Shown: one piece after another, positions 16,766-63,629 of the stretch | Numbering within the stretch: the stretch's first letter is position 1 | Layout of the letters: every line of letters starts with the position of its first letter | Assembly (NCBI RefSeq): GCF_040956055.1 | Contig: NC_090911.1 | Coordinates: 1,460,830 to 1,524,829 of the forward strand | Source of the DNA: Brachionichthys hirsutus | Taxonomy: Eukaryota | DNA length: 64,000 bases | Reading direction: 5' to 3' | Notes under the pieces: generated by a model | The model's input: the letters and a program-made list of their open reading frames with translations, nothing else | Told to the model about the DNA's origin: nothing | The model's database searches: none | Translations under genes and position numbers: made by a program

Positions 16766-17214
16766 AACGTTGGTGGCAAGAATTCTCTAAACAGCTTAAA
16801 GCTGGACTCTGAAACACTGGAGAACAAGAGAAAGAGAAAGAGAAAGTTTGATTTTAAAAAGTAATTACACCCCATCACCCCCACCCACCCACAACCCCAC
16901 CCCACTCAATGCATTCCACTTAACACCACGCCACTGAAACGCATGATAGTGCACATTGGACCCTTTTATGATTGTGATTCTTGGTGAGTGAAATGAATGC
17001 ACATTTTACAAGGTATGCTTTTTGTTTTTGTAAATAAAACATCATGGGATTTTTTTGTTCTGTTGGCTGACCTTTTTTGCGACAAGCATCCAAAAAGCGA
17101 TGAGTTACAAATAAAAAATAGTACATTGTTTGTTTGTTTTTCTTCTTTTAAAATGATCAGTTTAAAAATCAGTTTACCGTAATGAACCAGCCAAAAGCAA
17201 AGAAAAGGACTTAC

Positions 17215-18110
17215 GATGCATTTGTTGGGTTTTTCCCCAGAATGGACCCTCATGTGGATGAGCAGCTTGTAGCGCGCGTTGAAGGGTTTGTGGTGTCGCA
17301 CACAGCCGGCCCAGAAGCACGAAAACTCTTCCCCTTTGCGCTGATCGATGTGCACCTTCTCAATGTGCCTCACCAGCGCCTCCTGACTGCTGTAAGTGGC
17401 ACTGCAGTCAATCCAATGACATGGCTGGTCCTGCTGGTCCACTGCAAGGTCCTGTCTTGTGGGTCCATTAAGCTTCTGTAATGTATCTGCGGTACTGTCC
17501 TGACCGTCGTGGCTGTGAGGCAGTAGGCCCACCTGGAACAGTGCCTCCTGCTGGCTGTTCCCTTCATACGGTTCCCTCTTACATGCGGAAAAATCCTCTG
17601 CAGGCTCTTGTTTGATGGAATGATACTTGTCCTTTATTGTTTGTTGATAACTGTTGTTGCCCCCAGGTGCATTAGAAATAGGCAAAGATAAAGATGAGGA
17701 GGAGGAGGAGGAAGAGGAAAGAGAGGATATCGGAGAGCCAAACGGATGAGCTGGAGGGCAACTGCTGAGCATACAGGACAAAGAGAGGCAGGGCTGGGGG
17801 TAACAACTGAACCTCGGGTTGTTGTTTTTAGGATCTGTACACACGGTTGTGGCAAAGTCCTCCACAGCTGCTTCTGTGTGGGGTCCGGCTGTCTTACAGC
17901 TGAGCAGAGAGGTTAGGTCCCGTCCCAGCGACGACAGGGACAGGGAAGTCCATGGCGCACAGCAACCACCCAAACCGCCTGACTGCGTCGACGACTGAGA
18001 AAAACCCTCCGAGGAAAGTGGGGCCTGAAGGTCCTCGGCATCCACAAACAAACTTCCAAAACCTGGAAGAGTCAGCTGAACATCTGGAGGGCCGAGGTCA
18101 GGGGGCCACA
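17215..18110 (-). CDS. glis1: GLIS large 5' coding exon: N-terminal region plus zinc fingers 1-2
   Basis: The exon encodes CHWIDCSATYSSQEALVRHIEKVHIDQRKGEEFSCFWAGCVRHHKPFNARYKLLIHMRVHSGEKPNKCI, closed by the donor TGCATC|gtaagt. The upstream IKQEPAEDFS motif, the CVRxxKPF residues and the FEGC in the next exon favour GLIS1 over GLIS3. That paralogue assignment rests on memory of the family alignment. The candidate ATG at 18108-18110 is assumed; an upstream exon cannot be excluded. Confidence 0.8.
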
Positions 18111-21097
18111 TCTTGGCCCCCAACGATTTCCACTAAGATCTCTGATGATTCTCTTCAAGCAGCTTTAGGAATCCATTGGAGGCAAAGCCACCGATAGGCT
18201 CTTTCAATTCTTAAATCTTCTTAGATTGCTGCCGTCGTCTCATCTCATCCAGAGTCTTCTGTCATTTGTTCCGAACTGCTGCTGGGTCAGTCGTCTGCAT
18301 GCACTGTGGGAGACAGAAGCCAAACCCACATGAGTCATCTTAAAGGACAAAAACCACAAACACAAAGCCCTTTGTGAGCCAACAGCGGTCGAAGTACCCA
18401 GAGAGGGTTACAGGGTAACTAATTATTTTAGTCCAAAAAGTTCTCAATTAGATGTAGAAGCTTTGCGTGTAAACTCCTGCCAGGCCCTATTGAGGATCAC
18501 GAGATGAATAATGAAAGAAAAAGGAAAGAGGAATCACCAAAATCTATATCCAAATTACCTATAATTCCCACAATGCAACTCAATCAACGATACACTGCCT
18601 GGAATTTGTTGGTTACGCTAGTAGCAGCTAATGGGCTCAGATACGCTGTCACTCTGCTAAAATTATTTAACCACAATTAAAATCCAACCAACAACGACTC
18701 AAGTGACATCACATGTGGTAATTGATTCATCTTCTGCTCCCAGTGTTGCAAACAAAGATAGTAAAGAACTAAATTAAACTTTGTTTGCACAGTACGCATG
18801 CGTATACTTGATGTGTAAAATCGTAATTCAGATCAATTGAATCAAAATCAAAGCAATATAGAAAGTACATAGTCCCACATATGTGCCATGTAGCTTTTAT
18901 GCACCGATTTCAGCTGCGCTCATGCAGGCCTTGATCTACTGCACTGCTGTGAATCAGTGGCTCGGCTGGCGTCACAACGTGCCATGGCGTTGAAAGAGCC
19001 GAAACATGAAACCAAAAATGAGTCATATTCTGTTATTTCATCATTTAGTTCAGTCATTAAGCAGCAGAGAGGGTCCCAAATGGAATGAAATAGCATGTCC
19101 GAGCGCCTCGTCCGCAGGCTCCAATCAAACACATGGAAGTGTGACGCTCTGTATATTTAGTCTCCTTTGAGGCGCTGTAGGAGTCAGGGCTGATTCATGA
19201 CTGCGGGCATTAAGGCCACCCTTGCAGCAAATAGCAGCCGTTGTGTGGCCGCCGATTGCCTGGAACCTGGTCCAGATGCTTGTTAACAGAAGAGTAATGG
19301 ACCACATCGGACTGTTAGCTAATGACGCCGCATAGAGGCTGGAAAAGAGGGGATCACCCTGAGGTTCCACCTCCCTGTCACATGCGCAGTAGTTCTACGG
19401 TGATACGGCACTTCAGCGTTTATTGGAGTTGATTTCCCTGTCTTCTGCCATTTAAGAGATATTGATGACCTAATTCACAACAGGATCCCTGTCAGGCGTT
19501 AATAGCCATCGACAGATTCAAAGGGATTTCATGCAGATGGTTCTTTCACGAGCCAGCTGAGAGGATGAGTAAGTTCTCCTCTGCGGTTTATATTAGCCGA
19601 TGATGGAGTTACTAAGTGTGGGTCCTTGCCCCACAGTTTCCTGGTACAGTCGGGTTTACAGCTTTATAATTATTCCTGTAAAGGGCAGGAGTTGCCACCG
19701 TGGAGTCACATAGGAGAGCAGTCATGGGAGGCGTGGCTGGTTCTTAATTAGAGTTGGACAGGATTAATGATACGTGCACAGCAGAAGTCATCAATCAAGG
19801 CGTTTGAAATATAATTGTTACCCAGTACAAAGGTAACAACCGTTACATTTAAGATTCAAATGTAAAATGAGAAGGAGAAAAAACCTCAAAGGATATTACT
19901 GATACGTCATCTTTATTAGTCATTAAAGTCCAGCATCAACTGAGAAACAACGAGGGTGCAGACGGGGGGTTTCTTGCCCCTGAATGTTCAGGAGCCATTT
20001 CTTGGCCCAGATCCAGAAAGAAGAATCCTAAATTAAAACCAAGAAAAGCGTCTCGCATAACCACAACCGAGCATGCAAACAATAAAACAGCAGGCACGTC
20101 TCATGCGGTGGCTTTTAAAGCCCCACATGTTAAGCTGAGCTAAACACAGCTGTGGCATTTCATGACAAACAAACAAGAACTCATTTCACAATAAGCCCTT
20201 TTTTGCAAATGGTTCGGGGCTTTTACGTTCCACTGAAACATGCTGAAGCCCTTCTTTAGATTGTTTAGTCAAAAAAAATGAAAGGAAGCTTAGAAACATT
20301 TATGAGGCATGAGGGTTTTTTTATGTTGTTTTAAATTAAAGGTTGTTATTTTTTTATATACTGCGCAAACATAATCGATAAGACTTTTTTTTAAAGATCT
20401 TTAATTGTCGGTGGTGGTATAGCATATTCAGTACAGAACCATATGGAATTAGCATCATGTATATCCAAGTACATTTGAGAACACTGCCTTTATTTCATTT
20501 CTGTGTAAATCATATCAGATTCTATGACTTAGCGAAGGATAATAAGAGCTGCAGATCTTAGTTCTTGGATTGGATCAGAATACTTTTGTGCAAAGAAGTA
20601 CCCATATGTGTAGTATATTTTAATGGAATATGTTTGTAGGAGAACAAAATGTCTTAAAGGTGGTTGGCTGACCACTTTCCCACATGTCTCAGGTGTTGTT
20701 GTGAAAGACGTGAGAGACCAATAAGGCTATAAAGGAGAATTCTGAGCGGAGGTGGAAAGTTTTCACTTTGATTTGCACCTCGGGGTCCCCATTTTCAAAA
20801 GCAGCAACCAGCATTTAATTGTGAACAAAAAGCACCTCAAAGTTGTACAAAGAACGGAGAAGACAAACAGGTCAGCCGCCTCACCAAACCAGGGATGTGG
20901 CTCCGATGAGTGACAGCAGACTGGCTAACATCCTCCTGTTACAGGTGTGAGCACAGCAACAATAAGGACCCGCCTGCTCTGCCTGCAGACTCCTGATAGA
21001 CATAACCCATGAGATACAGGGTTAACCCTCACCCTTCCTCCCACCTCCAAAAACATGCAAATGATCTGAATTGGTTACACTAAGTTGTCCATACGTG

Positions 21098-24849: not shown

Positions 24850-26435
24850 TATTCCACCGAACCACGTTCCCTCTAAGCTGCGTGCGTGCGCAATTGCGCA
24901 CTGCTGATGCGGTCTTCGCGCAGCGAAAACCTCCGCTGCGCGCAAAAACAAAATCCAACCTGAATTGAAAATAAAAGAAAAAAGTTAAAATTCATGCTGT
25001 GCTACTTTTCAATGTGAGCCAGTGAGTGACCGGTGACCGGCTGCCGCAGCTAACGAGGAGAGACGCGTGCGTTTTTACGCAGCTAATCGACGTCCGCCGC
25101 CACAGGTGTTTGAGCGAACAACGCGGCGTGGCCGATGTGGAGGGAAGACGCTTAATAATAAAGACAAGGCGAACGGGCGGTGACGTCATCTCAGCACGCC
25201 AGAGTGAAAAGGAGACGCGATTCTTTGTAGCTGGAGCGCAAACAGAAGAAACGGAGAGACTGGGGGAGATGCTTTCCAGAGGATGAAGGAGGAGTTGTCT
25301 GTTTTTGACGTCGAGGCACTGAGCTCTGACGTCACTTCTGAGTATGGAGCAGCAGACATTGCTGCACCGGCAGATAAGTGTGAGGCTGTTCTGCAGAACC
25401 CACATTCTGGAGGTCATTACTGTGAGGCTGTTCTGCAGAACCCACATTCTGGAGGTCATTACTGTGAGGCTGTTCTGCAGAACCCACATTCTGGAGGTCA
25501 TTAGTGTGAGGCTGTTCTGCAGAACCCACATTCTGGAGGTCATTACTGTGAGGCTGTTCTGCAGAACCCACATTCTGGAGGTCATTAGTGTGAGGCTGTT
25601 CTGCAGAACCCACATTCTGGAGGTCATTACTGTGAGGCTGTTCTGCAGAACCCACATTCTGGAGGTCATTACTGTGAGGCTGTTCTGCAGAACCCACATT
25701 CTGGAGGTCATTACTGTGAGGCTGTTCTGCAGAACCCACATTCTGGAGGTCATTACTGTGAGGCTGTTCTGCAGAACCCACATTCTGGAGGTCATTAAAG
25801 TGTGAGGCTGTTCTGCAGAACCCACATTCTGGAGGTCATTACTGTGAGGCTGTTCTGTAGAACCCACATTCTGGAGGTCATTAAAGTGTGAGGCTGTTCT
25901 GCAGAACCCACATTCTGGAGGTCATTAAAGTGAGGCTGTTCTGCAGAACCCACATTCTGGAGGTCATTACTGTGAGGCTGTTCTGCAGAACCCACATTCT
26001 GGAGGTCATTACTGTGAGGCTGTTCTGCAGAACCCACATTCTGGAGGTCATTACTGTGAGGCTGTTCTGCAGAACCCACATTCTGGAGGTCATTACTGTG
26101 AGGCTGTTCTGCAGAACCCACATTCTGGAGGTCATTACTGTGAGGCTGTTCTGCAGAACCCACATTCTGGAGGTCATTAAAGTGTGAGGCTGTTCTGCAG
26201 AACCCACATTCTGGAGGTCATTACTGTGAGGCTGTTCTGTAGAACCCACATTCTGGAGGTCATTAAAGTGTGAGGCTGTTCTGCAGAACCCACATTCTGG
26301 AGGTCATTACTGTGAGGCTGTTCTGCAGAACACACATTCTGGAGGTCATTACTGTGAGGCTGTTCTGTAGAACCCACATTCTGGAGGTCATTACTGTGAG
26401 GCTGTTCTGCAGAACCCACATTCTGCTGGTCATTA
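24850..26435 (-). repeat. right arm of the inverted repeat: unique inner flank (24850-25370) plus about 25 units of the same 42 bp tandem repeat in reverse-complement orientation (25370-26435)
   Basis: The repeat is the reverse complement of the left-arm unit (ctgttctgcagaacccacattctggaggtcattactgtgagg). Some units are 45 bp variants with an aaagtg insertion. Confidence 0.9.
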
Positions 26436-36498: not shown

Positions 36499-36879
<381 letters not shown>

Positions 36880-36946
36880 TAAAGCAAGTTTTTGGCCTGT
36901 AGTTTGCCCAATCTACTTCAAGATACCAATGTCAAACTGGGCGGGG

Positions 36947-46439: not shown

Positions 46440-46800
46440 GCCCTAACCACCCAGCCCGGGGTCCTGTGTGGTCCATCCCGGGGTCCTGCGTGGTCCATCC
46501 TGGGTTCATGCGTGGTCCAGCCCGGGTTCCTGCGTGGTCCAGCCCGGGTTCCTGCGTGGTCCAGCCCGCGTTCCTGTGTGGTTCATCCTGGGTTCCTGCG
46601 TGGTCCAGCCCGGGTTCCTGTGTGGTCCATCCCGTGGTCCTGCGTGGTCCATCCCGGGGTCCTGCGTGGTCCATCCCGGGGTCCTGCGTGGTCCATCCTG
46701 GGTTCCTGTGTGGTCCATCCCGGGGTCCTGCGTGGTCCAGCCCGCGTTCCTGCGTGGTTCATCCTGGGTTCCTGCGTGGTTCATCCTGGGTTCCAGGCTG
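46440..46800. repeat. 45 bp tandem repeat, about 8 units (ggtccatcccggggtcctgcgtggtccagcccgggttcctgcgt…)
   Basis: The 45 bp periodicity is visible. It generates artefactual ORFs in all frames (PGSCVVHPGFLRGPARVPAWSS…). Confidence 0.85.
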
Positions 46801-50210: not shown

Positions 50211-50704
50211 GAGTGCTTTTCTATTTCGTTCTTGTGAATGTGGAAATGTTGCGTTGTTTATCGCAGGTTGGTTAACGTTCTATTTCAGAGGCTTCAAGCA
50301 TGTTTGTGTTAAAAGTTAGGAAAATAAATGGGCAGAAAAGAGAACATTTATGTGACTAATAATTTATTTGTTCAAAAATTCACCAGCACCATGAAAATAT
50401 TCCCCCACTTAAAAATGACATTGAGTAAACATGAAAGCACAACAAAGTGCACGTTGCACAGCCGTCACCTGAAACCCGGAAACGAGAGACACGAGGAAGG
50501 AAACGCCTGATTCCAGGCAACGGAACCAAACGCGGATTTTTTTTCCCACCTAATCTTCCGCTGTTTCCGTCTAGATCAGCTCAGTGAGGAAACTCAGAGG
50601 AATATTCCACTCGAGTGGAACTTCCTCAGACGAGGGGAAGTCCCGTTGGTCACCAGGGTGACGTCGGCGGCAGTCTTTCCTGGTAACCGTGGTAACCTTC
50701 CAGA

Positions 50705-52303
50705 CTAAATGTGCAGCCCGTCTTCCAGCAGCTTCCTGGACTGCCTTCGAGACCCGCGCTGGCCGTGATGATGATGATGATGATGATGATCGAGGTCGCC
50801 ATCGTTTGCCCTCATATCTCTGTCCTTCCTCTGACTCCCCCCCTCCCCCTCCCCCTCCCTCTTCCCCCTGTCTTCAGCCCCTGCTCTCTCGAACCGACTC
50901 CTCATGCTCTCGATCTTGCTCCCTCGCCTCTCGTCCTCCGGAGCTGCTCCCCTCCTGGAGTCAGATTCCTCTGGCCTGCCTCCCCCCTCCCTCCCTGAAT
51001 GCTCCTTTATCCACGACGCTTCATGTCTTTGATGTGATTCGGTTCTTCCCGTCTCTCTCTTCTCTCCTCTGCTTTTTGCCACCTCACCTCTCTCATCCCT
51101 CTCTCCCCTGTCCTCCTCAGTCCTCCTCCAGCTCTCTGTCCTGTGGCTCCCTCTGGTTTCTGGTTTGCTCTCACTTTCTCTCCTGGGGGGCTTTTCTTTG
51201 TCACTGCTGCTGCTGCCATGCCTCCACATACGGCCAGTCCCCTCCTCTTTATTCATCACTCCTTCATCGCTTCCTCTCTGGATCTTTGTCTTGCCCCTCC
51301 CCTCTTCTTGCTTTGGTCTACCTGACCCAATCTTTCCTTCCTTGTGTTCATTCCCAGTCTTATTCCACTCCCTTTCCCTTTCCTTCTCACCCGTCTTGAT
51401 TCCTGCACCACTCTCTTCTTTTGGAACGTCTTTCTTGCTCTGGATTTGTTCTTTTCCAGCTGTAGCACGATTCTCAGTTTCTTTTTTCTTTTTTCTGTCT
51501 TTGTCAGGCTGTTCTTTTGAATCCTCCTCTTTGGCTCCTTTCAATGCATCCCTTTTCTGCTCCTTATCTTCCTCTAATTTGGAATCATACTTGTTTTTGC
51601 CTTCCCCCTTCTTTTCGGATTTCTTGTCATCCCCTTTTCCCTCCTCCTTCTCCTTCTTTCCTTTAGGCTCTCTGGATTCTTTCGAGCTCTTCTCTTCATT
51701 GTCCTCCTTGTTATTTTTTAGATTCTGCTTCTCCAGCTCGTCTCTCTTCTTCTTCTCCTGCTCCTCCTCGGCCTTCTTGTCTAGTTTCTCCTCCAAGAGG
51801 TCCAGCTCCTGATCCAGCTCAGCCAGCTTCTCTGGATCAGACTCAAAATCATGGTCGACTTCCACCTCCACCTCCTTAATCTCCTCGTACTCCTCCACCT
51901 CGATGCCATCCATGGTCTTCTGCAGCTGCGTCTTCACCTTGTTCAGCTCCAGGAGGCCGTCCTGGAGTTCCTTACACACGTCCCTGATCTTGGTGGCAAA
52001 CTTGGTTTTGGCACCCTTGCGGAGATCATGGGAGTCTTTGGCAAGGAAGAAAACATCGAGGGCCAGGAAGAGGGCCGACATGACCCCCGTGGTGACGCTG
52101 ATGGCCTGGGCGGCTTTGGCGGCACCTCCTGCAACCCCTAGAATCTGGACTGTGCTGATGAGCTTATCGGTGTTGATCATCAGGGCTTTTCCAGCTCGGC
52201 CCCCCTCCTTCATCACATGCTTGAGGTTGTGGTTCAGGGCCTTTTTGGTAGCACTTTGTGAGTACTTTTCAAAGTCCCACTCGTCTAGGGTGTTCATGCC
52301 CGC
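50705..52303 (-). CDS. ApoL-like gene, large 3' exon: conserved ApoL C-terminal region plus a roughly 400 aa E/K/R/G-rich low-complexity extension ending in His8
   Basis: The acceptor is tcttgcag|GCGGGCATGAAC. It encodes …GVMSALFLALDVFFLAKDSHDLRKGAKTKFATKIRDVCKELQDGLLELNKV…, matching the teleost ApoL motif VFLLMDVVSLVKDSKHLHEGAKSE…ELE.KLEEL. The frame then stays open for about 1.2 kb (EEK…DLDHHHHHHHHGQRG…*). Confidence 0.7.
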   Translation of the reverse strand, partial: AGMNTLDEWDFEKYSQSATKKALNHNLKHVMKEGGRAGKALMINTDKLISTVQILGVAGGAAKAAQAISVTTGVMSALFLALDVFFLAKDSHDLRKGAKTKFATKIRDVCKELQDGLLELNKVKTQLQKTMDGIEVEEYEEIKEVEVEVDHDFESDPEKLAELDQELDLLEEKLDKKAEEEQEKKKRDELEKQNLKNNKEDNEEKSSKESREPKGKKEKEEGKGDDKKSEKKGEGKNKYDSKLEEDKEQKRDALKGAKEEDSKEQPDKDRKKKKETENRATAGKEQIQSKKDVPKEESGAGIKTGEKEREREWNKTGNEHKEGKIGSGRPKQEEGRGKTKIQRGSDEGVMNKEEGTGRMWRHGSSSSDKEKPPRRESESKPETRGSHRTESWRRTEEDRGERDERGEVAKSRGEKRETGRTESHQRHEASWIKEHSGREGGGRPEESDSRRGAAPEDERRGSKIESMRSRFERAGAEDRGKREGEGEGGSQRKDRDMRANDGDLDHHHHHHHHGQRGSRRQSRKLLEDGLHI

Positions 52304-52834
52304 CTGCAAGACGCAACGAGAAAACAAATGTAGACAATGATTGAATACTTTAGCGAGAAAACGGCAACTTATTGAAATGTTTATTCCACGAGTGGAGTAG
52401 GTGCCGAGTTTGGTGTGTTTATATAGATTTTTAGGAGGGGTAGAGGTGGATGCTGGGGGGTGCACAAAGAGAAGGCCAAAAAAAGCACAAGCATTGACAG
52501 GCAGAGAAAGGGATGTGAAGTTGGGTGGATTATTCGTCTTATCTGGATACAAATTCATCGCTTTTCACGAGAGACGCTTTAGTCGGTGACATTTCCAAAA
52601 CGTTATGTATTAAATAAAATAGCATATATGAAAACTTGGAGTTTGGACTCATGAGCCATTTTCTAGAATTTCATAAAATAATAATAATAATTTCTTCACA
52701 GATAAAATGCTAATTTGTATTTGCTATTTTAACTCATATCTAGTTCTGAGCTTGTAAAAACAGCTCCACTTGACCTGTAACACGATTTACGCCCCGTGAG
52801 AACGCCCGTGTGGCGTTCGCCGACATGTCCTCAC

Positions 52835-53287
52835 CTGTACGAACTCCATACACTCTCTGATGACTTTGATTTCATCCTGGTAGCCCTGGATCATCTTCTC
52901 CAGCTTCTTCCGGTCCATGTTGGAGTGGACCGTGTCTGTGATATTGGCCGTCGCTGAGGTGATGCTGCCCGCCGTGGCCACACCGATCCCCACCGCCGTC
53001 ACAATAATGGACGCACCAAAGGTGAACGGAGCCAGGATGAGCCCGGTGATTGTTGCCACGCTGCCGGCGACGCTGGCCACCCCTCCACCCACAGCAGCTG
53101 ACACCGTTTTCTTGTGGAACTGATCCGAAGCGTCAGCCAGAGCGAGAAGCTCCAGGATGCGATGCTGTAGGGACGCCCCCCGCTGGTTGAAAAGGCGCAC
53201 AAACAGCCGGGCTGCCATGTAGACTCGGTCGGCAGCCTGCTCCATGGCCCTGCAGAGACACGGGGAAAGGACATCGTGTGTTCCAGA
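52835..53287 (-). CDS. ApoL-like gene exon with putative transmembrane/membrane-insertion region (…AMEQAADRVYMAARLFVRLFNQRGASLQHRILELLALADASDQFHKKTVSAAVGGGVASVAGSVATITGLILAPFTFGASIIVTAVGIGVATAGSITSATANITDTVHSNMDRKKLEKMIQGYQDEIKVIRECMEFVQ)
   Basis: The Gly/Ala/Val/Thr-rich hydrophobic helices match the apolipoprotein L family membrane-insertion domain. The donor is GTACAG|gtgagg. The acceptor choice (gaacag|TCT at 53288-53290, giving 151 codons) is inferred. Confidence 0.7.
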
Positions 53288-53806
53288 CTGTTCAAGTTCA
53301 AAGAAATCGTGTCCAAAGTGAATATTGCAAATAAAGATGGCTGGATCAACCAATGAGATAAGCAGCCTCCATAAGTGGAGTAACAAGCCTGTACAAATCC
53401 TGTCAGGGTGACAGCAGAGCTGAGAAAAGAAGCTACCCTCACATTTCCCCTTCATCTTCACTGAAGTTGGATGCCTCGTTCCATTCCGTCCAACCTGGAA
53501 GTCGACATCATAAAACGTTTATGTGGAGGGGAGAGAGGAGACCAATAGACAGAGTGATGGGTTATTGTTTTATTCAACTATGAAGGAGCATTTATGGAAT
53601 CTTTTAAAGGAAAAAAGCACAACAACAACAACAACAACTCGTCTGGTTAAGACAATCAGACAAACCTTTGACTGTATTCCACCACTGCATCAGCTCATCA
53701 GCTTCCTGTAAATGGAAACTCGTCAATAAAAGGCACAGTGAAAAACAGCGTTCGCGTCTGACCCGTCGCCTGATCTAACAAAAATTAAAATGGGTAAAAA
53801 GCTCAC

Positions 53807-53887
53807 CTCCTCGGGGGCCGCAGGGTCGTGTTCCGTTGGGTACGCTGCCATCTCAACGGGTTGGACCACCAGCTCCTCTGAGCTCTC
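53807..53887 (-). CDS. ApoL-like gene exon (ESSEELVVQPVEMAAYPTEHDPAAPEE)
   Basis: The acceptor is tttttcag| and the donor is GAG|gtgagc. It is 27 codons, phase 0. Confidence 0.55.
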
Positions 53888-54137
53888 CTGAAAAACGAAC
53901 GCAGGAGCAACGCTGACAGAAAGTCACTTTCTTTGTGCATCCACTGACGCAGACACCCACAATGTACGATGAACGAAAGCTAACGGCTAACTAGGAAGCA
54001 GCATCTAAATGACCCTGCATGAGAAATGCACCAATTTATTCATGAGATTAGATTTGGTATTGATGAAGTGGATCCATCATTCAAACCCGGGCGGCGTCTT
54101 GATGAGACAAGCTGTTTAATAACATCATAATGCTAAC

Positions 54138-54203
54138 CTGTGCTGGTTTCAGATCCCGCATCTCAACAGCCTCCTCCTCAATAGCAGACATCCTGTCTGG
54201 ACC
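54138..54203 (-). CDS. ApoL-like gene, 5' coding exon containing an in-frame ATG (GPDR-MSAIEEEAVEMRDLKPAQ)
   Basis: The minus-strand ATG is at 54189-54191. The donor is CAG|gttagc. The exon also has an upstream acceptor (cctccacag|), so it could instead be an internal exon. Confidence 0.5.
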
Positions 54204-54514
54204 CTGTGGAGGGGAAGAAACAAAACGTAAGAAAGCGGTAAACGTGTGGAGCCAAACTCAATGCAAGAGACGCTGAATCACACTTTGTGGCGATAGAACA
54301 TGCACGTTGAGACTTTAACAAGCTGATTGGGTTCTTTAATCATTTGAAAAAGCATCGTAGTAAAAAAAGCAGCTTCATCTCATCACCGTTTTCTTTGACC
54401 TGAGATAAGTGAGCAGAGCGCCTTGGTTTCCCTGTGCCCCTGAACGCATCTCATTTTAATCAAAGACGTTGGTGCTCTATTGTGATTTGTGTTATTTATT
54501 TATTAATAAATAGA

Positions 54515-54900
54515 GAACCCACGCAGACACGGGGAGAACCCGGAGAGAACCCACGCAGACACGGGGAGAACCCGGAGAGAACTCACGCAGACACAGGGAG
54601 AACCCGGAGAGAACCCACGCAGACACGGGGAGAACCCAGAGAGAACCCACGCAGACACGGGGAGAACCCGGAGAGAATCCACACAGACAAGGGGAGAACC
54701 CGGAGAGAACCCACGCAGACACGGGGAGAACCCGGAGAGAACCCACGCAGACACGGGGAGAACCCGGAGAGAATCCACACAGACAAGGGGAGAACCCGGA
54801 GAGAACCCACGCAGACACGGGGAGAACCCAGAGAGAACCCACGCAGAGAACCCGGAGACAACCCACGCAGACGCGGGGAGAACCCGGAGAGAACCCACGC
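54515..54900. repeat. 32 bp tandem repeat, about 12 units (cacgcagacacggggagaacccggagagaacc)
   Basis: The 32 bp periodicity is visible. The unit is homologous to the internal segment (ccggagaaccc…agagaaccca…cgcag) of the adjacent SINE. Confidence 0.85.
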
Positions 54901-55012
54901 AGACACAGAGAGAACATGTAAACTCCTCACAGAAAGGCCACAAGCCGGATTCAAACCTGCGACCTTTTCGCTGTGAGGCAGCAGCGCTAACCACTGCGTC
55001 ACCGTGCAATGT
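54900..55012 (-). mobile_element. SINE 3' part / tRNA-like head (same family as 1560-1700), contiguous with the tandem array
   Basis: The sequence is agagaacatgtaaactcctcacagaaaggccacaagccggattcaaacctgcgacc…gctgtgaggcagcagcgctaaccactgcgtcaccgtgc. Confidence 0.75.
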
Positions 55013-55247
55013 TCACGGTAATCATTTTAATACAATATAAAAAAAGGGTAAATACTGAGCGTGTCGATGTCTGTAAATATTTTAAGCGGTCCAAATGAGT
55101 CGGTGAAGCTCAGTGACAGATCAGTACGCACCAAAGCTACGTCAAACTTGGGTGTTTGGGTTTTCTTGACTCGGAAAGACACAACCTAAAAAAGGAAAAA
55201 CAAGAAAGGAGGAGTTAGGAAGGATCCACGACAAGGTAGGAGGAGGA

Positions 55248-55364
55248 TTAAACTATTTTAACATCGTGACATATGCCATGCGCCCAATTTACTCGGGTTT
55301 TCTTCTTGATGGTTCTTTTGCGTCTCAGGCCGCCTCCTTCTGGGTTCTCCGTGTCCTTACTGTC
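55248..55364 (-). CDS. modular gene last exon (DSKDTENPEGGGLRRKRTIKKKTR-VNWAHGICHDVKIV*), containing an internal candidate donor CGA|gtaaat at 55293
   Basis: The acceptor is ggatgcag|GACAGT and there is an in-frame stop at 55248-55250. If the gtaaat donor at 55292 is used instead, the frame continues into ApoL-like exon 54138-54203. Confidence 0.45.
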   Translation of the reverse strand, partial: DSKDTENPEGGGLRRKRTIKKKTRVNWAHGICHDVKIV

Positions 55365-58300
55365 CTGCATCCGCAGACAGAGAGCAACAGAACGGAGGGA
55401 TAGTTCAGCAGCCAGTAGTTCGGTAGTTTATTACGTAACGAATCACGCGGCGCTCTTGTTTTCTGAAAAGCATCTTTCTGGGACCACAGAGATAAAAACG
55501 TAACGATAACAAACTAAAGGCCAACGGAAGTCAAACAGTCTACAAACTTGACCTGGTGTCAGGAACGAACATCTCGCTTCATCTCGCTTCAATCTCTTTC
55601 CTTTTCACACTGAACATTGGGGGAAAATTAGTTTCCCGTTTATTTTGATGGTTTGACTTTTGCTAACTTAAATTCTACTACTTGTGTGAGAATAAATTGC
55701 GATTTCTGGTGCACAATCCTAATTATTTTATTAATGAATAACAATTTAAATGTATATCTAATTATTTATTTGTCAGGATCACAATAAAATGTGTGCGATG
55801 TTTCCATACACGTCAGAGTTCTATCTGTGCTGCTCTTTCTAACTAATAACAATCAATAGATCGTCACGTCCATACCTGATGATCAATTGTTTTGGGCGTC
55901 CTCCTGAAAATTCCACCAAATCCTCCTTTTTTCTCCTGCTAGAAAAAGATCACACACGAAGCATAACTTAAAGGGCCCCCAGACAAAGCGAGACTGCAGA
56001 AGTCCTCACCTTGCTGCCGCTTCCTGCTTCACAAAGATTCTCAGCGCTGGCTGACAGTTCTCCTGCGCCGCCCTTTGAGTTCAGAAAATGAAAATCATCA
56101 ACTATGAAGCCGGTGGTGAAGCTGAAACACGCAACAGAGCTCGACACTCGTTGAAAAGTAGAAAGAAAATATATTCAAAATCTATTTTTAGATGCTCTTT
56201 GCTCGACTTTTTTTATAGTACTCCCAGATGTTTGGAGTGTAATCCATGATTTCGGCCGTCAGCATCAGCGTTGTGAGAAGTGTTACCCTCTCAAAGGTGT
56301 CAAACACGAACACGCCGGACCGCTTCAAGTATGTCTCACCTGTGCCGTCTCCACGAGGCTGTCCCAGCTGGAGGACAGGTCCATCGTGTCCTGGAGCGGA
56401 TCCTGGAGAACGAGACACAATGTTTGGTTGGATCTGCTCAAAGTTCAAATGAGCCTTGAACTGCGGCTAACCATGCCGCAAACAAAACAAAGCAAATTGA
56501 GTCAATGCGGTCACCGTGGTAACGGCTGAACGCTCAGCCAGTTTAGGCTTTTTGAAGATCCCCGCCAACCCCCCCTTCTTCTCCTGAAACAGACGAAAGT
56601 CTAATGAGTTAATAGTCACTCAAAAGCAGGACAAAGAAAAGCTGGCTCAGATTCACCAGGTGTTTGTGTGCCAGCCTCCTCTGTATCATATCATCATCAT
56701 CATCATCAATCGTATCTATCGGCAGAGTAACGGTGGAACTCATTGATTTTATTTTCATTGATTTTATTTTATTTTTTTATTGTTCTCGTTGTCTTCTTGA
56801 GTATAAACTTTTAACTTTAAATGACAGGACTCTGATCCACCGTTGGAATCTTTACGCCACACTACCCCCCCCCCCACTTAAGAAAGCACAACATTCAAAA
56901 CGCAGCCTCAGCGTGTTCAGCCGCTTTCAGAAACGCTGCTACGTGTGAGCACGCTTTCGTTACACATTACCTTGGGGTTTCCTGACAGGCTGTCCACGCT
57001 CCCCGTCAGCTCCTTCCAGTCATCGTTGTCCTGAAGAAGAAGAAAAACAAACGACAGGAAATGACATGCGCAGCAGCAGGTGATGATGATGATGAATATA
57101 TTTATTAGATAGAATGCTAGGGGCCCAGCGCGACTGGCCACACACACCTACCCCGGCCTCCAGTGCAGGCGTTTTAGCTGTTTTCTTGATCAGCCCACTG
57201 AACAGCCCACCTTTCTCCTGATGAGCAGACATCCACACGGCTTCATTCAATAATATCCACTCCACTCATGCTGAGTGTAAAGAGAACATGGAACAAAGAC
57301 TATTGTCCCCCTAGTGGTGCCTTTAACGGCAGGTAACCGTGGTAATGCACACAGCGACGACTCTGACCTCATCCAATATGTTTTCGATGCTGGCTGATCT
57401 TTTGAAGATGCCGGTCAGACCTCCTTTCTTCTCCTAAACATGACAGAGTTCTGTTATCAGGGGGCAGAAACTGCAGTGACATTCCCAAGTCCTGCATGAA
57501 CCGGATTTGGCTCGCTCATTAGGAACAGGGACACGCAATATTCGGATCCAGCAGGTCCGGATTACAGTATAATCTGAAGCTTCAGCACATTATAGATACT
57601 CATGGATCCATCCATCAGTCGCTCTCATTCCTGTTGTGGTGGGGGGGGGGTAACTAAGTACCGTACATGTAATGTATTGTTTATGTCACACTTATTCACA
57701 CCCTCATTAGTTTTGATTTAAAATAAAAAGGAATAAGAATTACCAAAACTCAACGTGTAACTTTTTGAAGAGAAATCATTTTGTTTTCCTTTTAAAATTG
57801 CTAAAAAGAAATACATAAAAATAACCGTATGGTTAAAATATAACCTACTTGGACTGAAAATGTTCGATGAGTGAGTTTCATGTCTGCCCTTTGCTTTTTA
57901 TTCTTTTATTTATTTGTATTGTATTTATTTGTAAATGCAGCGCTAAACAGCAACAACAACCACGAAAAGCACAAAAAGTCGTTCCTACAGAAGCGAAGGA
58001 AAATCGAGATCAAGTGATATGAAAGCACCTTCGACGCGGCGGCGTTGGACAGATTCTCACAGCTACGAGAGAGATTGTCACTGGGCATCTCCTGCTTCTG
58101 AATTCAAACAGGGGGGGGGGGGACAAATATTTATTCCATCCAAAACAAGAAGCTATTCAAACTAATCACATAAATCAATGAAATGCAGGACCTGGTCCGC
58201 TGCAGCGTCCTCTGCCGGCTTCTGCGGCTTCTTAAACAGGTTGCTGAAAATGCTTTTCTCCTGAAAGATCAATCGTTGTCACTGAGCAACAATAAAGAAA

Positions 58301-61300
58301 TGTCTGTGTTTGTGTCGTTTGCTGCTCACCTTAGTGCTGCTATTCTCAGACAGGTCGTCAACGCTGCCCGCCGGCTCTTTCTGAGCCTCTTTGTCCTGAA
58401 AATGAATGAATGAATGAATGAATGAATGTTGCAGGACAACCCCAGATCCGGCGTTCCTGCCTAATGTCGCCCTAACCCCAACAGTCCACCACGTGATCGT
58501 TCTTGCACCCACTTTGTGCCGCAGCGTCCGAGTCACCAATCAGCTTTGGTAAACAGTAAACAACATCCAGCATGGTGGCACAGTGGTTAGCGCTGTTGCC
58601 TCACAGCAAGGTCACAGGTTCAAATGCAACTTGGGGCCTTTTTGTGAGGAGTTTGCATGTTCTCCCCGTGTGTGCGTGGGTTCTCTCCGGGTTCTCCGGC
58701 TTCCTGCCACTTCCAAAAACTTGCAACGTAGGTGAATTGTTCATGCTAAATTGTCTGTAGGGGTGCGAGTGCCTGCCTATGTGTGGCCCTAATGTGAACT
58801 GGCGATATGTCCGGGGTGTACCCCAACTCTCACCCGTAGATTGCTGGGATAGGCTCCAGAACTTAAAAGCAAACAGATGCGTTCTTGTACCTCTCCAGGA
58901 TGAGCAGCTTCATCAGGTTTGGGAGCCTTCTTGAATAATCCACTAAATATTCCTCCTTTCTCCTTAACATACACGTTCAGACAATGAATACTTGTTCTTA
59001 GGGTTATGTCATTATTCAGATTCCTTTTCTAAAGCATGTAGAATACAGAACAACGCAAAACAATCCTCACTTTGGTGTCCAGAGCTTCGTTGCTGCCTGA
59101 GAGCTCACTGCCTTGCTTCTCCTGGGAGAGAATTAAAGCACAGGAAGCCGAGGAGGCGACAGAACCGTCACATTTCATGAATTACTGCGAGGAGCAGCTG
59201 AGCTCAACCATCACTTTTCTAAACTTGTCACAGCTTGACTTAGAATCAGTCTAGGAAGTTCTGTGAAAGCACAATGATTGGCTGAGTGTGACGTCGAGAA
59301 CAACAGAAATGTTGATCGAGATGAATGCAAGAAATAAAACACTTTTTTTAATCTGTCCATAATTCTTAAAGATGTTTTTAACTGTAATTCTAAACTAGCA
59401 AAGGCCTGAAAACAGAAGAATATTAATTCAACTGTTCAATGACATGCAAAAATCTGACCTTGGCGTTGGCAGCTTGGGGAAGATCGTCACTGCTGGCTGA
59501 CGGATCCTTCCGTGCCGAGACGTTCTCCTGAAACAGGAATTAAATTAAATCCAGATTAAACGTCCAGAACGTTTACGTTTACGTTTAAGTGTTTCAATCC
59601 GAGTGCATCGTGTTTTTTGTCATGCCTTTTTTTCTACATAGCGGAGGCTGCTTTGCTCAAACACGGATTCAGTCACGCTAAGCTGTGTGAGAAACCCTTC
59701 GGAGCATCGTGAGAGGTTTTCATCTGTTCAGTGGTGTTTTATATTTATGGTGTAATTTGGATTCCTTTAATTACACAGATCGTTAAAGCCTGCTGAATGA
59801 CAGACACGCAGCTAGTATGTTAGAGTGAGCCCTGTCAGTCCGTGCATCCGTGCGTCCGTGCGTCTGTGTGAAGAGGCCGGGCCTTTGTACCTCTCCAGAT
59901 GTTTTTGGGGTCTTCCTGAGGAGTCCACTGAACAAGCTGCCTTTCTCCTAGAGGGCAGAGAACAAATTCAAGAAAGTTGATGACTTATTTTCTTGACACT
60001 CTTCTCTTTCTTTCGGCTGAGGGGTCGCCACAGCAACCCAACGTTCTCCACTTCACCCTGTCCTTTGCATCGTCCTCCCCAACACCAGCCACTCTCATGT
60101 CCTCCCTCACTACGTCCATGTCTCTTCTCCTGGGTCGTCCTCTAGCCCTGTCCTTTGCATCGTCCTCCCCAACACCAGCCACTCTCATGTCCTCCCTCAC
60201 TACGTCCATGTCTCTTCTCCTGGGTCGTCCTCTAGTCCTGTCCTTTGCATCGTCCTCCCCAACACCAGCCACTCTCATGTCCTCCCTCACTACGTCCATG
60301 TCTCTTCTCCTGGGTCGTCCTCTAGCCCTGTCCTTTGCATCGTCCTCCCCAACACCAGCCACTCTCATGTCCTCCCTCACTACGTCCATGTCTCTTCTCC
60401 TGGGTCGTCCTCTAGCCCTGTTCGCTGGCTGTTCCTTCCTCAGCATCCTTCTACCGATACGGTTTTTCCTCGCACTGGTTTATCGGGCCGTTAGCGACGA
60501 GTCTGACCTTGCGGACTGACCTTGTTCTCCGACAGGCTGTCGGTGCTGGAAGACAGCTCAGTCTGTAACGACGCGGCGCCCTTCACACAACAAAAGGGTT
60601 ACTCATGTCAGAATGAGAGATGGGAACAATATTCCAGGCAGTTTGTAAATACATGCTTTACCTCCTCCAGTCTGGGGTCCTCTGACAGTTTGGGGGATTT
60701 CTTAAACATGCCACTGAAAAGGCCTCCTTTCTCCTGATGATTGAAGAAAAACCACACCGTAAAAAATGACTTGTCCGTTTTAGCTGCTGTTTGCATTTGG
60801 GTAAAACTGCCTCGGTGATTTGACAGGCAGCCTGTGCTCGGAGAGGAAGGGGAATCGTCCCCTTCGTCGTAAGATTCGTGTTAGACTAAATAGCTGCAAC
60901 AAAATAATGTGCGTCAGTGACCAAATAGGCTTTCATAGATAAAACAGGAAGTAGAAGCATCGCATTACAGATGGAAGATGGGTCGTTATAAAATGAATTA
61001 CAGGTCGGTCGCCGGGACGAATCATTTCGGAGCCTTACCTTGGTGGGGGCGTTCTCAGAGAGCGTCTCGGCACCGTCTGGTGGGTCTGTCGGCAGCAGCT
61101 GAACACCATGAAACAAAGATTAACAAACACAAAATAAAACTACAGAAATCCAGCCGTTTGATCTTCCTGCTGCTCACATGGACGCCACCTTCTTTATTCC
61201 CTTTCTCTTCACAGCTCAAGAACACGGAAGTCCGTGCATTTCCACTAACAATCAGTGCGTATAAATGTGGGTCACACATTTTCACCTTGCCAGCCGCTTC

Positions 61301-63629
61301 CTCTCTTGGTATCTTGGGAGACTTTCGGATTATCCCACCAAAGAATCCTCCTTTCTCCTAGCAACATGCGATTAAATTACACTCTCAGTCCAGTAACGGC
61401 TCAGCGAATCCAGTCAGATCACAGATCTCTGAGCTCACCTTTGAGTTTTCAGACAGATTATCATTACTGCCTGATAGGTTTTCACGTACAGACTGTTGGT
61501 CCTGAAGGGCAGATGAACTGGTTCAGTTGGGTAATCTACTGGATTAAAGTAATCCCACTGAAAGACTTTTCGTCACCTTGTCAGTCGGAGCTGCTTCCAC
61601 TGGCTTCGGAGACTTCCTGAACATCCCACCAAATATTCCACCTTTTTCCTGAAGCAGAAGTGCATGATTGATCACGCAGGATCACTGAGGAGGATCTAGT
61701 CTGTACGTAAACGTTACCTCTGCTCCAACACAAGGCAGAATGAAGACGCCGCTCACCTTACCGCTGCCGTTTTCAGACAGACTCTCACTGCTGGCAGACA
61801 ATTCAGCGTTAACGGTCGGATTCTCCTGAAGCACCAACAAGAAAGAAGGGATCGTTCACATGCCATGAATGCCATCAGCACTTCTGTGAGATGAGGCACG
61901 AAGCCATCTTTGAAACAGACCTGTGCAGATGCCTCATCTATTGACTTATTGGAATGTTTCTGCTCACGAGAGAATAAGCCTCTCATTTCCTGTAAATAAA
62001 AAGGCCGGGGTAATATATTAAAACATATATTTGTGATCATATTAACTCAGTAAATGCCAGTGACGTTGAAAGACGTCAATCTAAATCCAAATCTAAGGAC
62101 AAAAGACGTCAACTGGGATTGAAACTGAATTCTGACTCTCTTCGACAGCCAATGCAAAACGATAGGAACACACATTGTTTTTCCTGATGAAAGAAGAAGC
62201 TTTAATCTTTCATTTGGTCTTTGCATAGTCTAGTACCTAATATTCTGTGGGTCTCGAAAAATAGGGCAAAATTAGCTGAAAAAGGCTGGCACTGAATGAG
62301 TTAAATGAGAAAGAGCATCACATGCTAAAGATGCTGCACAAAACCACAAAATGACCTACTTGGGACTTTTCAGAACTTTTCTCTTCAGCGTCTTCTGCCT
62401 CTTCAGGATCGCTGTTTGCTCTGACCTGGAAATGGAGCGTAACAGAATGAGTTGGGGCAGGAAGGCACCAAATGTGGCACATTCAGCATCTGAACATAAG
62501 CAGAAGCACTGAAGTTACCGATTTGTCTTTGGGAGTCCTCCGGAAAATCCCAGCAATTAGATCTCCTATGTCCTGAGTAAAACAAAAAGGGGGTGAGAAC
62601 AGAAGCCCTGATGTTTAATGATAAGCTCACTTTAAAGGCAGTTCCTAAACTTCTCAATTTGATTCGATAGTCAACAGAAAATCTCTCGTCTTGCAGAAAA
62701 ATACCGTTTTCCGTTTCTGTCTGCAGAAATCTAATTTTGAAACGGACACATCTACGTTGTCGTTCCTTTTTCTCTGGCTTCGTCAGAACGGACGTTTGAA
62801 CAGAATAAAGGCCTTTAAAGTTTATTTTCTGTCTCTCTTACCTGTTTAGGTTCTGCATACTTTTCCTGCTTGTTCTTCTCTCTGGATTGTTCTCTTTCTG
62901 TGCCTGGTTTCTCCGTGCTGGCCTCGGGACTCGGTTCTCCTTTAGCCTTAGACAAAATCAGCACAGATTGGTTTCAGACAAAGAATTTAAGTCGTAAATG
63001 CTTCAGACAACTTTGCTGAGAACTGAGAACGGTCACAAATGGTGGGATATTTGGTAAAATATGAAAGTGCAGGTTTTAAAAGCTGACAGTGAGATAATCT
63101 CATGTGTCCCTGGGGGGTATTTTCTGTCTGAGAAATGAGTAGAAATGAAGGAAATGATGAAAAGACATTAAAATATCAGGGGGAAGAAACAAAAATCAAC
63201 TGGGTAGTTTAGCTGTGCTTCTTAATTACATTTCCTGTTAGTTGCTGAGAGATGAAAAGGTTCTAAAGCTGCTTCCCCAGCACATGAGAAGTGAACCGAC
63301 TTTCAAGTTGAACAGCTTTTTAACTGCGCTTTGGACAAATCCCACTCCCGGAACGAGCCCAAGCTCACATTCTGACCAGACTCAGCCCTCGTTGTGTGTA
63401 CGCGACAACGCTTCGTGGAACGATGTGAAAGTGGCGCACCAGATAGGAAGTGTCACGGACAGACCCCCATTCCTATATCTCACTTTGAATGCAGTGGTGT
63501 TATGAATCCTAGCATCAAATCCCACGTGTACAAAAAACAAAGACACACACAGACACACACCGGTTTGCTGCCTGGAGCCTGTTTGGTCAGGACAACATCA
63601 GATGTTTCTTCTTTATCACCGTCATCCAT
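55248..63629 (-). CDS. novel modular gene (span) of at least 25 tiny phase-0 exons (54-105 nt) alternating between cationic EKGG[LI]FSG[LM]FKK.PK… modules and acidic …LS.S.DSLSEN..K modules. The first coding exon is 63561-63629 (MDDGDKEETSDVVLTKQAPGSKP). The last exon starts at the 55364 acceptor.
   Basis: A regular series of minus-strand exons each has AG acceptors (…cag|GAGAAAGG…) and strong GT donors (…|gtgagc, gtaaag, gtaggt). The verified exons are listed as separate features. The family is unidentified. Confidence 0.6.
55876..55938 (-). CDS. modular gene exon, cationic module (QEKKGGFGGIFRRTPKTIDHQ)
   Basis: The acceptor is ttttctag|CAGGAGAAAAAAGG and the donor is CATCAG|gtatgg. It is 21 codons. 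Confidence 0.6.
57152..57217 (-). CDS. modular gene exon, cationic module (EKGGLFSGLIKKTAKTPALEAG)
   Basis: The acceptor is ctcatcag|GAGAAAGGTGG and the donor is GCCGGG|gtaggt. It is 22 codons. Confidence 0.65.
58572..58880 (+). mobile_element. full-length tRNA-derived SINE (about 310 bp) in an intron of the modular gene
   Basis: The element runs from a ggtggcacagtggttagcgctgttgcctcacagcaaggtcacaggttcaaatgc… tRNA-like head, through a gagtttgcatgttctccccgtgtgtgcgtgggtt… body, to a …ggataggctccagaac tail. It is the same family as the minus-strand copies at 1560-1700 and 54900-55012. Confidence 0.85.
58891..58962 (-). CDS. modular gene exon, cationic module (EKGGIFSGLFKKAPKPDEAAHPGE)
   Basis: The acceptor is tgttaag|GAGAAAGGAGG and the donor is GGAGAG|gtacaa. 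It is 24 codons. Confidence 0.65.
60050..60420. repeat. 90 bp tandem repeat, 4 units, derived from an interspersed-repeat segment (gtcctttgcatcgtcctccccaacaccagccactctcatgtcctccctcactacgtccatgtctcttctcctgggtcgtcctctagccctg)
   Basis: The 90 bp period is exact and begins after ttcggctgaggggtcgccacagc, a common teleost repeat motif. It is intronic. Confidence 0.8.
60662..60733 (-). CDS. modular gene exon, cationic module (EKGGLFSGMFKKSPKLSEDPRLEE)
   Basis: The acceptor is atcatcag|GAGAAAGGAGG and the donor is GAGGAG|gtaaag. It is 24 codons. It is followed at about 60512-60571 by an acidic-module exon (GAASLQTELSSSTDSLSENK). Confidence 0.65.
61285..61356 (-). CDS. modular gene exon, cationic module (EKGGFFGGIIRKSPKIPREEAAGK)
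   Basis: The acceptor is ttgctag|GAGAAAGGAGG and the donor is GGCAAG|gtgaaa. It is 24 codons, phase 0. Confidence 0.6.
62519..62572 (-). CDS. modular gene exon (DIGDLIAGIFRRTPKDKS), a degenerate cationic module
   Basis: The acceptor is tactcag|GACATAGG and the donor is AAATCG|gtaact. It is 18 codons. Confidence 0.55.
62842..62946 (-). CDS. modular gene exon 2 (AKGEPSPEASTEKPGTEREQSREKNKQEKYAEPKQ)
   Basis: The acceptor is tctaag|GCTAAAGG and the donor is AAACAG|gtaaga. It is 35 codons, phase 0. Confidence 0.55.

Follow-up and report, generated by a model that had tools for sequence, protein, structure and literature searches.

The window analysed here is a stretch of 64,000 nucleotides from the spotted handfish, Brachionichthys hirsutus (NCBI RefSeq assembly GCF_040956055.1, contig NC_090911.1, positions 1,460,830 to 1,524,829 of the forward strand), and all coordinates below are positions within it. 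A tblastn search with the protein P0001 places one minus-strand gene at about 50.4 to 61.7 kb, and no second ApoL gene was found by tblastn in the 64-kb window. The segment 50705-52303 on the minus strand is very probably the terminal coding exon of this gene, the handfish orthologue of teleost apold1a, which encodes an ApoL-domain membrane-hairpin protein of 1126 amino acids (aa); this degree of confidence applies jointly to the identity and to the explanation of the tail by a scaffold with docking motifs, as described further below. The exon comprises 533 codons with its TAG stop (50705-50707), belongs to a minus-strand open reading frame (ORF) at 50705..52558, and begins at 52303, as set by the splice acceptor cttgcag/GCGGGC. 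It encodes residues 595-1126 of P0001 with a 100% match to the NCBI protein. A search with the spliced product recovered the same 1126-aa protein at 100% identity and 100% query coverage, under the name 'myb-like protein X' of Brachionichthys hirsutus.

The remaining top matches are teleost proteins of 650-1150 aa. Several of them, from Cynoglossus, Pelmatolapia, Stigmatopora, Chanos and cyprinids, are named 'apolipoprotein L domain containing 1a' (apold1a) by Ensembl or NCBI, and other orthologues carry names that reflect low complexity, such as neurofilament medium polypeptide, myosin-1 and eIF3A-like. The closest relatives are apold1a proteins and the gene structure is common to them, which assigns the handfish gene to the teleost apold1a orthogroup. 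In the genome of Cottoperca gobio, the last exon begins at the identical residue, AGM... According to the layout of P0001, about 20 small exons encode an N-terminal extension and are followed by two ApoL exons, the second of which also encodes the entire tail. The initial annotation of the window, made from the sequence alone, delimited the last coding exon exactly, its end coordinate being 52303; however, this is only the last exon of a 1126-aa protein, and the 456-aa N-terminal extension, whose exons run up to a position of about 61.7 kb, was left out.

The description of the product as ApoL-like in that annotation was borne out by Pfam. The family PF05461 matches the full protein with 117.3 bits against a cut-off of 25.9, across residues 462-715 and profile positions 43-297 of 298, and the match is divided between the two exons (E 4e-23 and 3e-8). 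The first of these exons (52835..53249, minus strand; residues 457-594) carries the match with E 4e-23 and encodes the N-terminal part of the domain, including the hydrophobic helical hairpin; its 3' end reads ...GAGTTCGTACAG/gtgagg at 52835, with the donor GTGAGG at 52834. The C-terminal part of the domain (51920..52303, minus strand; residues 595-722) consists of the second hydrophobic segment and the amphipathic C-terminal helix ...KFATKIRDVCKELQDGLLELNKVKTQLQ. Hydrophobic 19-mers were found at residues 511-555 and 658-682 only, in both cases within invariant columns rich in G, A, S, T, V and I, and membrane insertion as an ApoL hairpin is predicted from them. Their positions agree with published accounts of the hairpins in ApoL and APOLD1 proteins (PMC11726835, PMC9973481).

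The structure predicted by AlphaFold2 (AF2) with a 40-sequence alignment has a mean predicted local distance difference test score (pLDDT) of 45, a low overall confidence that is expected for a largely disordered protein; helices of moderate confidence make up the ApoL core. In the C-terminal ApoL part, AF2 places helices at residues 605-649, 655-681 and 695-725. The last of these is the amphipathic, leucine-zipper-like C-terminal helix, in which L707, L712, L714 and L721 are invariant. As a separate observation, residues 451-568 (exon 52835-53249, minus strand) have a weak PDB sequence match (E 0.006) to the Bacillus Nhe lytic component L1 (6tao) and to Vibrio MakE (6w08), both components of alpha-pore-forming toxins. 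This may be a compositional likeness between hydrophobic hairpins, and the match was not used as evidence.

Beyond the ApoL helix (...NKVKTQLQ), the frame remains open for 404 codons, from KTMDG to the stop, and the protein ends in DLDHHHHHHHHGQRGSRRQSRKLLEDGLHI. The tail of about 400 codons rich in E, K, R, G and D, the peptide strings quoted for it and its C-terminal end, as given by the initial annotation, are all present. It contains 19.5% E, 14.6% K, 10.6% each of G and R, and 7.7% each of D and S, and the DNA that encodes it is 75% purine. Because of this bias, stops are fewer and long ORFs also occur on the plus strand, antisense to the tail (236 and 215 aa), again as first reported. 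The antisense ORFs were rejected as genes, as they have no Pfam match and their open frames are not kept in orthologues. A tandem-repeat origin of the tail was likewise rejected: Tandem Repeats Finder (TRF) detected no repeat structure besides a (CAT)8 run and a few very short purine-rich arrays.

The same bias could be used to argue that the tail is a purine-rich 3' untranslated region (UTR), open by accident and carried into the NCBI model by automatic prediction, since 75% purine lowers the frequency of stops and yields the long antisense ORFs, and the name 'myb-like protein X' reflects a low-complexity match. However, none of 5000 composition-preserving shuffles of the tail was free of stops (mean, 18 stops), and the other two sense frames contain 9 and 27 stops. 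In the four species with DNA, sense frame 0 alone is open throughout, while the five other frames are broken at species-specific places. A dN/dS below 1 and a C-terminal motif that adjoins the stop codon in dozens of species are also at odds with a UTR. This explanation is regarded as effectively refuted.

The ratio of nonsynonymous to synonymous substitution rates (dN/dS) was calculated by the Nei-Gojobori method (NG86) for the handfish against two orthologues, on protein-guided codon alignments. The ApoL part of the exon gave 0.05, the acidic segment with the start of the following helix (residues 723-771) gave 0.09-0.17, and the remaining tail gave 0.27-0.39, with 0.36-0.38 for its R/E/G/S-rich half. 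The values for the tail are approximate, yet clearly below 1. Spliced transcripts of other species extend across the same region. The Logan sequence L001 (SRR28473478, 3056 nt) has an unbroken ORF at 19-2025 which runs from ...VAAYPTEG across the ApoL exon junctions and the full tail to ...ALLEDGLNI and its stop, followed by a 3' UTR of 1031 nt. The Logan sequence L003 (SRR10006208, 4743 nt) contains a complete ORF of 1118 aa with a tail of 448 aa. Since no shuffle remains open, a single frame is open in four species, dN/dS is below 1, islands and the C-terminus are conserved, and transcripts of other species include it, the tail is genuine coding sequence and not an artefact of purine bias. 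It is translated and under relaxed purifying selection.

At the 3' end of the gene, a candidate poly(A) signal AATAAA was located by hexamer scan at 50363..50368 (minus strand), 337 nt past the stop. It falls within a 76-nt block (50356-50430) that shares 80% identity with DNA located downstream of the Cottoperca orthologue, making it a plausible poly(A) site. Another AATAAA occurs within the coding part of the exon (51248-51253), which by itself is no evidence of use. It could nevertheless be argued from this hexamer that the long tail is a minor isoform in the handfish and that the main mRNA ends soon after the helix through internal polyadenylation or alternative splicing, as in the short-tailed cyprinid apold1a and apold1b. 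Some percomorph database models do stop 50-130 aa past the helix (P0015, P0047, P0049), and the transcript data come from other species, none from the handfish. Nevertheless, no GT donor exists where the short models end, and these models are possibly fragments. Moreover, the transcripts of two other species span the whole tail and continue into the 3' UTR, so that the earlier transcript end by which the long tail might have been overturned was not seen, and purifying selection together with a conserved far C-terminus requires regular translation of the full tail. A minor isoform is therefore improbable.

Several segments can be distinguished in the tail, all encoded on the minus strand. The first is an acidic alternating segment, KTMDGIEVEEYEEIKEVEVEVDHDFESD (51836..51919; residues 723-750), which is strongly conserved in teleost apold1a; its acidic block is also found in apold1b, and AF2 gives it a low-confidence beta strand at 728-736. 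The second is a conserved amphipathic helix, PEKLAELDQELDLLEEKLDKKAEEEQEKKKRDELEKQ... (51695..51835; residues 751-797), present in cyprinid apold1a, partly present in apold1b and absent from gar and paddlefish. It is the one confident helix of the tail (pLDDT 84-91), and for residues 800-1126, about 330 in all, pLDDT is below 50 and no secondary structure is predicted. A disordered half rich in K and E follows (51320..51694; residues 798-922; K 8-13 and R 1-3 per 40-aa block), with the island ETENRATAGKEQIQSKKD at 51428-51481. At about residue 922 it switches sharply into a disordered half rich in R, E, G and S (50708..51319; residues 923-1126; R 5-9 and K 2-4 per block), with the islands RTESWRRTEEDRGERDERGEVAKSR (51068-51142) and ERRGSKIESMRSRFERAGAED (50870-50932). 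The protein is terminated by the conserved motif QRGSRRQSRKLLEDGLHI-COOH (50708..50761; consensus RxGSRxxSxxLxDGLxI).

Overall, the tail is a strong polyampholyte, with a charged fraction of 0.525 and a net charge per residue of -0.02. Five [RK][RK]x[ST] sites occur in the handfish tail, and sites of the RRGS/RRxS type recur in the orthologue alignment. The last residues, L-H-I-COOH, have the pattern of a class II PDZ ligand, in which positions 0 and -2 are hydrophobic, L-x-I being invariant in 17 orthologues; similar ends are F-Y-I in a salmonid-like sequence and L-S-I in Albula. No Pfam match to the tail was obtained at E up to 10. A PDB sequence match of residues 712-826 to the KKE tail of Nop58 (E 0.07) was weak and compositional and was not used as evidence. 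AF2 also pairs a conserved basic strand, TRVVSFRVKK (residues 358-366, about 55132-55185, minus strand), with the acidic strand EVEEYEEIKEVEVEV (728-736, about 51878-51904, minus strand) at pLDDT of about 50; in this model the pairing could be an intramolecular charge zipper between two cytosolic flanks, or an artefact.

Comparison with orthologues shows what is kept in this tail. Acanthomorph apold1a tails are roughly 350-550 aa long, and nearly all end in ...RxGSRxxSxxLxDGLxI. The tail was initially called exceptionally long, which is true relative to tetrapod and non-teleost ApoL proteins (about 280-420 aa), but it is ordinary for acanthomorph apold1a. An alignment of 17 tails consists of indel-rich, variable spacers between conserved islands, as is usual for a disordered region. 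The first island includes the acidic block and the helix, MDGIEVEEYEE...ESDPKKLAELEQELDLLEEKLDKK, and the further islands are ...ETENRITAGKEK.ESK.D, RRHSSRSDK, RTESWRRTEEERGVKDWRAEMAKSR, RKESHRSHE and EKRGSRVESARRKFERAGGEE. At the C-terminus, D, G, L and the final I are invariant in the 17 aligned orthologues, and the same end is found in many more. The handfish protein has all the features of the acanthomorph long tail, namely a charged tail, the islands and DGLxI-COOH.

The handfish region after LDKK was aligned locally to orthologue tails and compared with composition-matched shuffles. The z values were 26 for Cottoperca, 19 for Anarhichas and Cynoglossus, 10 for Channa, about 6.5 for Merluccius, Xiphophorus and Stigmatopora, and 3.5 for a salmonid-like transcript and Aplochiton. 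The likeness between tails is positional, not merely compositional. A search with the last 168 aa of the tail in a set of 5.8 billion proteins returned no matches, not even the handfish protein itself, and is uninformative owing to low-complexity handling. In addition, the last 45 nt or so of the coding sequence (50708-50752, minus strand; GCTGCTGGAAGACGGnCT...ATTTAG) are nearly identical in DNA, synonymous sites included, among the handfish, L001 and Cottoperca, and the DNA is also near-identical to L002 here. This may reflect conservation beyond amino-acid constraint, although the stretch is short and chance may also explain it.

These patterns bear on the principal alternative to a tail with specific motifs. 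The tail could be a generic charged entropic bristle, translated and kept but without sequence-specific partners, that exerts steric pressure, spacing or curvature beside the membrane hairpin, so that length and charge matter and motifs do not. Such a bristle would suit a sequence that is mostly poorly conserved while its composition and its order, K-rich and then R-rich, are kept. It would also suit the wide variation of tail length, the predicted disorder, a dN/dS of 0.3-0.4 that is typical of relaxed constraint, and the discussion of ApoL proteins as membrane-remodelling factors (PMC11726835). However, the islands and the last 18 or so residues are conserved residue by residue across acanthomorphs, which a pure bristle does not need, and the similarity to orthologue tails is far above that of composition-matched shuffles. 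As an account of the whole tail, the bristle is possible and somewhat doubtful; for the spacers it may hold.

The distribution of the tail was examined by an exhaustive, profile-free ApoL-domain search and by name look-ups. In four groups the homologues stop no more than about 20 residues past the ApoL helix, namely in gar (342-412 aa), paddlefish and sturgeon (341-417 aa), bichir (293-321 aa) and amphibians (279-286 aa); tail-less examples are gar with 412 aa and paddlefish with 390 aa. Cyprinid apold1a extends just 50-80 aa beyond the helix, and apold1b ends in ...SDPKKLAQLEE, about 40 aa after it. Osteoglossomorphs have unrelated extensions of about 120-140 aa. Long tails with recognisable islands were found in apold1a of salmonid-like, galaxiid (Aplochiton), gadiform and percomorph fishes. 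In Albula there is a long tail rich in E, K, G and R that ends in ...EPLSI, a possible homologue of the acanthomorph tail. The acidic block and the helix occur across teleosts, while the long extension is a feature of euteleost, and especially acanthomorph, apold1a that non-teleost homologues lack. Since the acidic block is present in both paralogues, and the helix at least partly, this module probably arose in the teleost stem. The comparison with orthologues proposed at the outset was thus favourable to the long tail: true orthologues do not end at the helix, and an end soon after it is confined to cyprinid apold1a, to the paralogue apold1b and to homologues from outside the teleosts.

Among teleost apold1a proteins, those of Cottoperca gobio (LOC115022310, P0003), Cynoglossus semilaevis (P0002) and Anarhichas minor (LOC142956895, P0007) have ApoL domains 86-92% identical to that of the handfish. 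They share with it the acidic block, the helix, the K/E-rich and then R/E-rich tail, the islands and the ...LLEDGLxI end, as well as, in Cottoperca, the boundary of the last exon. The length of the N-terminal part varies by species and isoform, and the handfish has a substitution (RDERGE) at the second conserved Trp of the ...DWRAE island. The ApoL domains of cyprinid apold1a (zebrafish, formerly si:rp71-1g18.13; P0082) and of apold1b (P0101-P0120) are 73-82% identical and are followed by an acidic block and by the helix or at least its first part, but both proteins are without the R-rich half and the DGLxI end.

A further difference is the His8 tract, which had been recognised from the sequence and is present at 50765..50788 (minus strand) as (CAT)7CAC. 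By TRF the array spans 50766-50790, with a period of 3, 8.3 copies and 100% matches. Other orthologues have H-x-H, as in HEHGH, or EHGQ at this site, the longest His run in any of those examined is 4, and the His8 tract is found only in the handfish among the sampled orthologues. Since the repeat is pure and restricted to the handfish, its sequence indicates a recent (CAT)n slippage expansion, specific to this species, at a conserved and ancestral H-x-H site. The tract is probably neutral, and it offers a simple case of a recent microsatellite expansion in coding sequence.

Apart from the ApoL domain and the tail, the gene encodes the N-terminal extension of 456 aa (53442..61696, minus strand, by tblastn), to which no Pfam match was obtained at E up to 10. 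Its pLDDT is below 50, the N-terminal 420 residues being of low confidence like the disordered tail. Reading by eye revealed a KEKGGLFSGxFKKxPK-like motif in 7 copies, together with a basic block, RRKRTIKKKTRVVSFRVKK. These basic-aromatic motifs of residues 1-456 of P0001, about 7 in number, are KEKGGLFSGMFKKSPK, KEKGSLFSGLLRKTPK, KEKSIFSNLFKKPQK, EKKGGLTGIFKRSAS, EEKGGLFSGLIKKTAK, EKKGGLAGIFKKPKL and EKKGGFGGIFRRTPK. They are apparently spread over separate exons, because the exons are small there, and the KGGLFSG-type motifs may be membrane-binding or phospho-regulated. The introns of the gene contain tandem repeats at 54512-54915 (32-bp unit, 12.9 copies) and 60056-60421 (90-bp unit, 4.1 copies, 99% identical), both of which give rise to spurious ORFs. 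Downstream of the gene, a 22-bp tandem repeat occupies 46451-46794 (15.6 copies, 88% identity).

Elsewhere in the window, neighbouring features are a C2H2 zinc-finger exon at 16966-18123 (minus strand; Pfam zf-C2H2_15, E 2e-18), an RRM-domain exon at 36526-36882 (plus strand; RRM_1, E 9e-14) and part of a retroelement reverse transcriptase at 504-1517 (minus strand; RVT_1, E 2e-15). A 42-bp tandem repeat forms two oppositely oriented arrays, 15791-16325 and 25379-26435, with 12.7 and 25 copies at 95-97% identity and about 9 kb between them. These arrays produce long spurious ORFs in several frames.

As for function, a hairpin protein would hold both termini on the same side of the membrane, taken here as the cytosol, and the tail would thus extend into the cytosol, where it most likely serves as a flexible scaffold or tether. 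Coiled-coil association could be mediated by the helix at 751-797. The conserved islands and the RRxS sites, which are of the type used by basophilic kinases, would act as regulated docking motifs, and the C-terminal L-x-I-COOH, with its likeness to a class II PDZ ligand, could recruit a partner. Extending this to the whole protein, it is tentatively proposed that the ApoL hairpin protein of euteleosts was rebuilt into a scaffold of about 1100 aa, to which the N-terminal array of KGGLFSGIFKKxPK basic-aromatic repeats and the C-terminal tail were added as cytosolic modules, and that the tail docks ApoL-bearing membranes to junctional or cytoskeletal partners. As a complete account, this is a possibility to be held with reserve.

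Known systems offer partial parallels. Fish apold1a genes are named after mammalian APOLD1/VERGE, an endothelial early-response protein. The human protein, of about 279 aa, is without the long tail and the N-terminal repeats, and no mammalian sequences were among the named matches. In descriptions of mammalian APOLD1, transmembrane domains are accompanied by a coiled coil, and as in the handfish protein an ApoL-type membrane hairpin is followed by a coiled-coil helix (PMC9973481, PMC11726835). The role proposed for the tail fits the mammalian protein, which is reported to function at junctions of the endothelium, in the cytoskeleton and at Weibel-Palade bodies (PMC9973481). Human APOL1-6 also have PF05461, the hydrophobic hairpin and the leucine-zipper-like C-terminal helix (PMC11726835) and, unlike the handfish protein, end at or shortly after that helix. 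The N-terminal four-helix bundle and signal peptide of APOL1 (PMC11726835) are not seen in the handfish protein. The KKE/D tails of Nop56 and Nop58 and the side-arms of neurofilament M and H resemble the handfish tail by analogy only, as K/E-rich polyampholytes of low complexity; they have no homology to it, are nucleolar or cytoskeletal, and are not joined to a membrane-hairpin domain.

Several points weigh against the reading of this exon as part of an apold1a gene with a functional, motif-bearing tail. Synonymous divergence in the tail is near saturation (dS 0.8-1.2, undefined for one of the segments compared), and dN/dS can be biased when low-complexity codons are aligned with the protein as guide. 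The spliced mRNAs that support the tail are from two other species, none from the handfish. The link to APOLD1 derives from Ensembl and NCBI names, while the nearest non-teleost matches are named 'apolipoprotein L3-like' or 'L6-like' and the gar homologue is labelled apold1b. The topology assumed above is drawn from the ApoL hairpin literature, and the scaffold, the phospho-regulation and the PDZ-type ligand are suggested by resemblance to motifs. Finally, most of the tail evolves fast and cyprinids have a tail of 50-80 aa, so that much of its length may be dispensable.

These results settle that the open frame belongs to a genuine coding exon, both annotated and conserved, and that the surrounding 11 kb form one gene. 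An identical protein is present in NCBI, and annotations of its orthologues are widespread; the sequence feature is already known, correct but ordinary and typical of its lineage. Its biological value is modest, being a lineage-specific disordered tail with a few residue-level motifs and an invariant C-terminus, which is not described in the literature searched. In that literature no paper on apold1a was found, and the papers that pair APOLD1 with zebrafish do so incidentally. If the proposed docking role is true, short-tailed zebrafish and long-tailed acanthomorphs would constitute a natural experiment. Even in mammals, where a bleeding disorder is associated with APOLD1, its function is little understood, and the fish-specific modules could therefore point to interaction partners.

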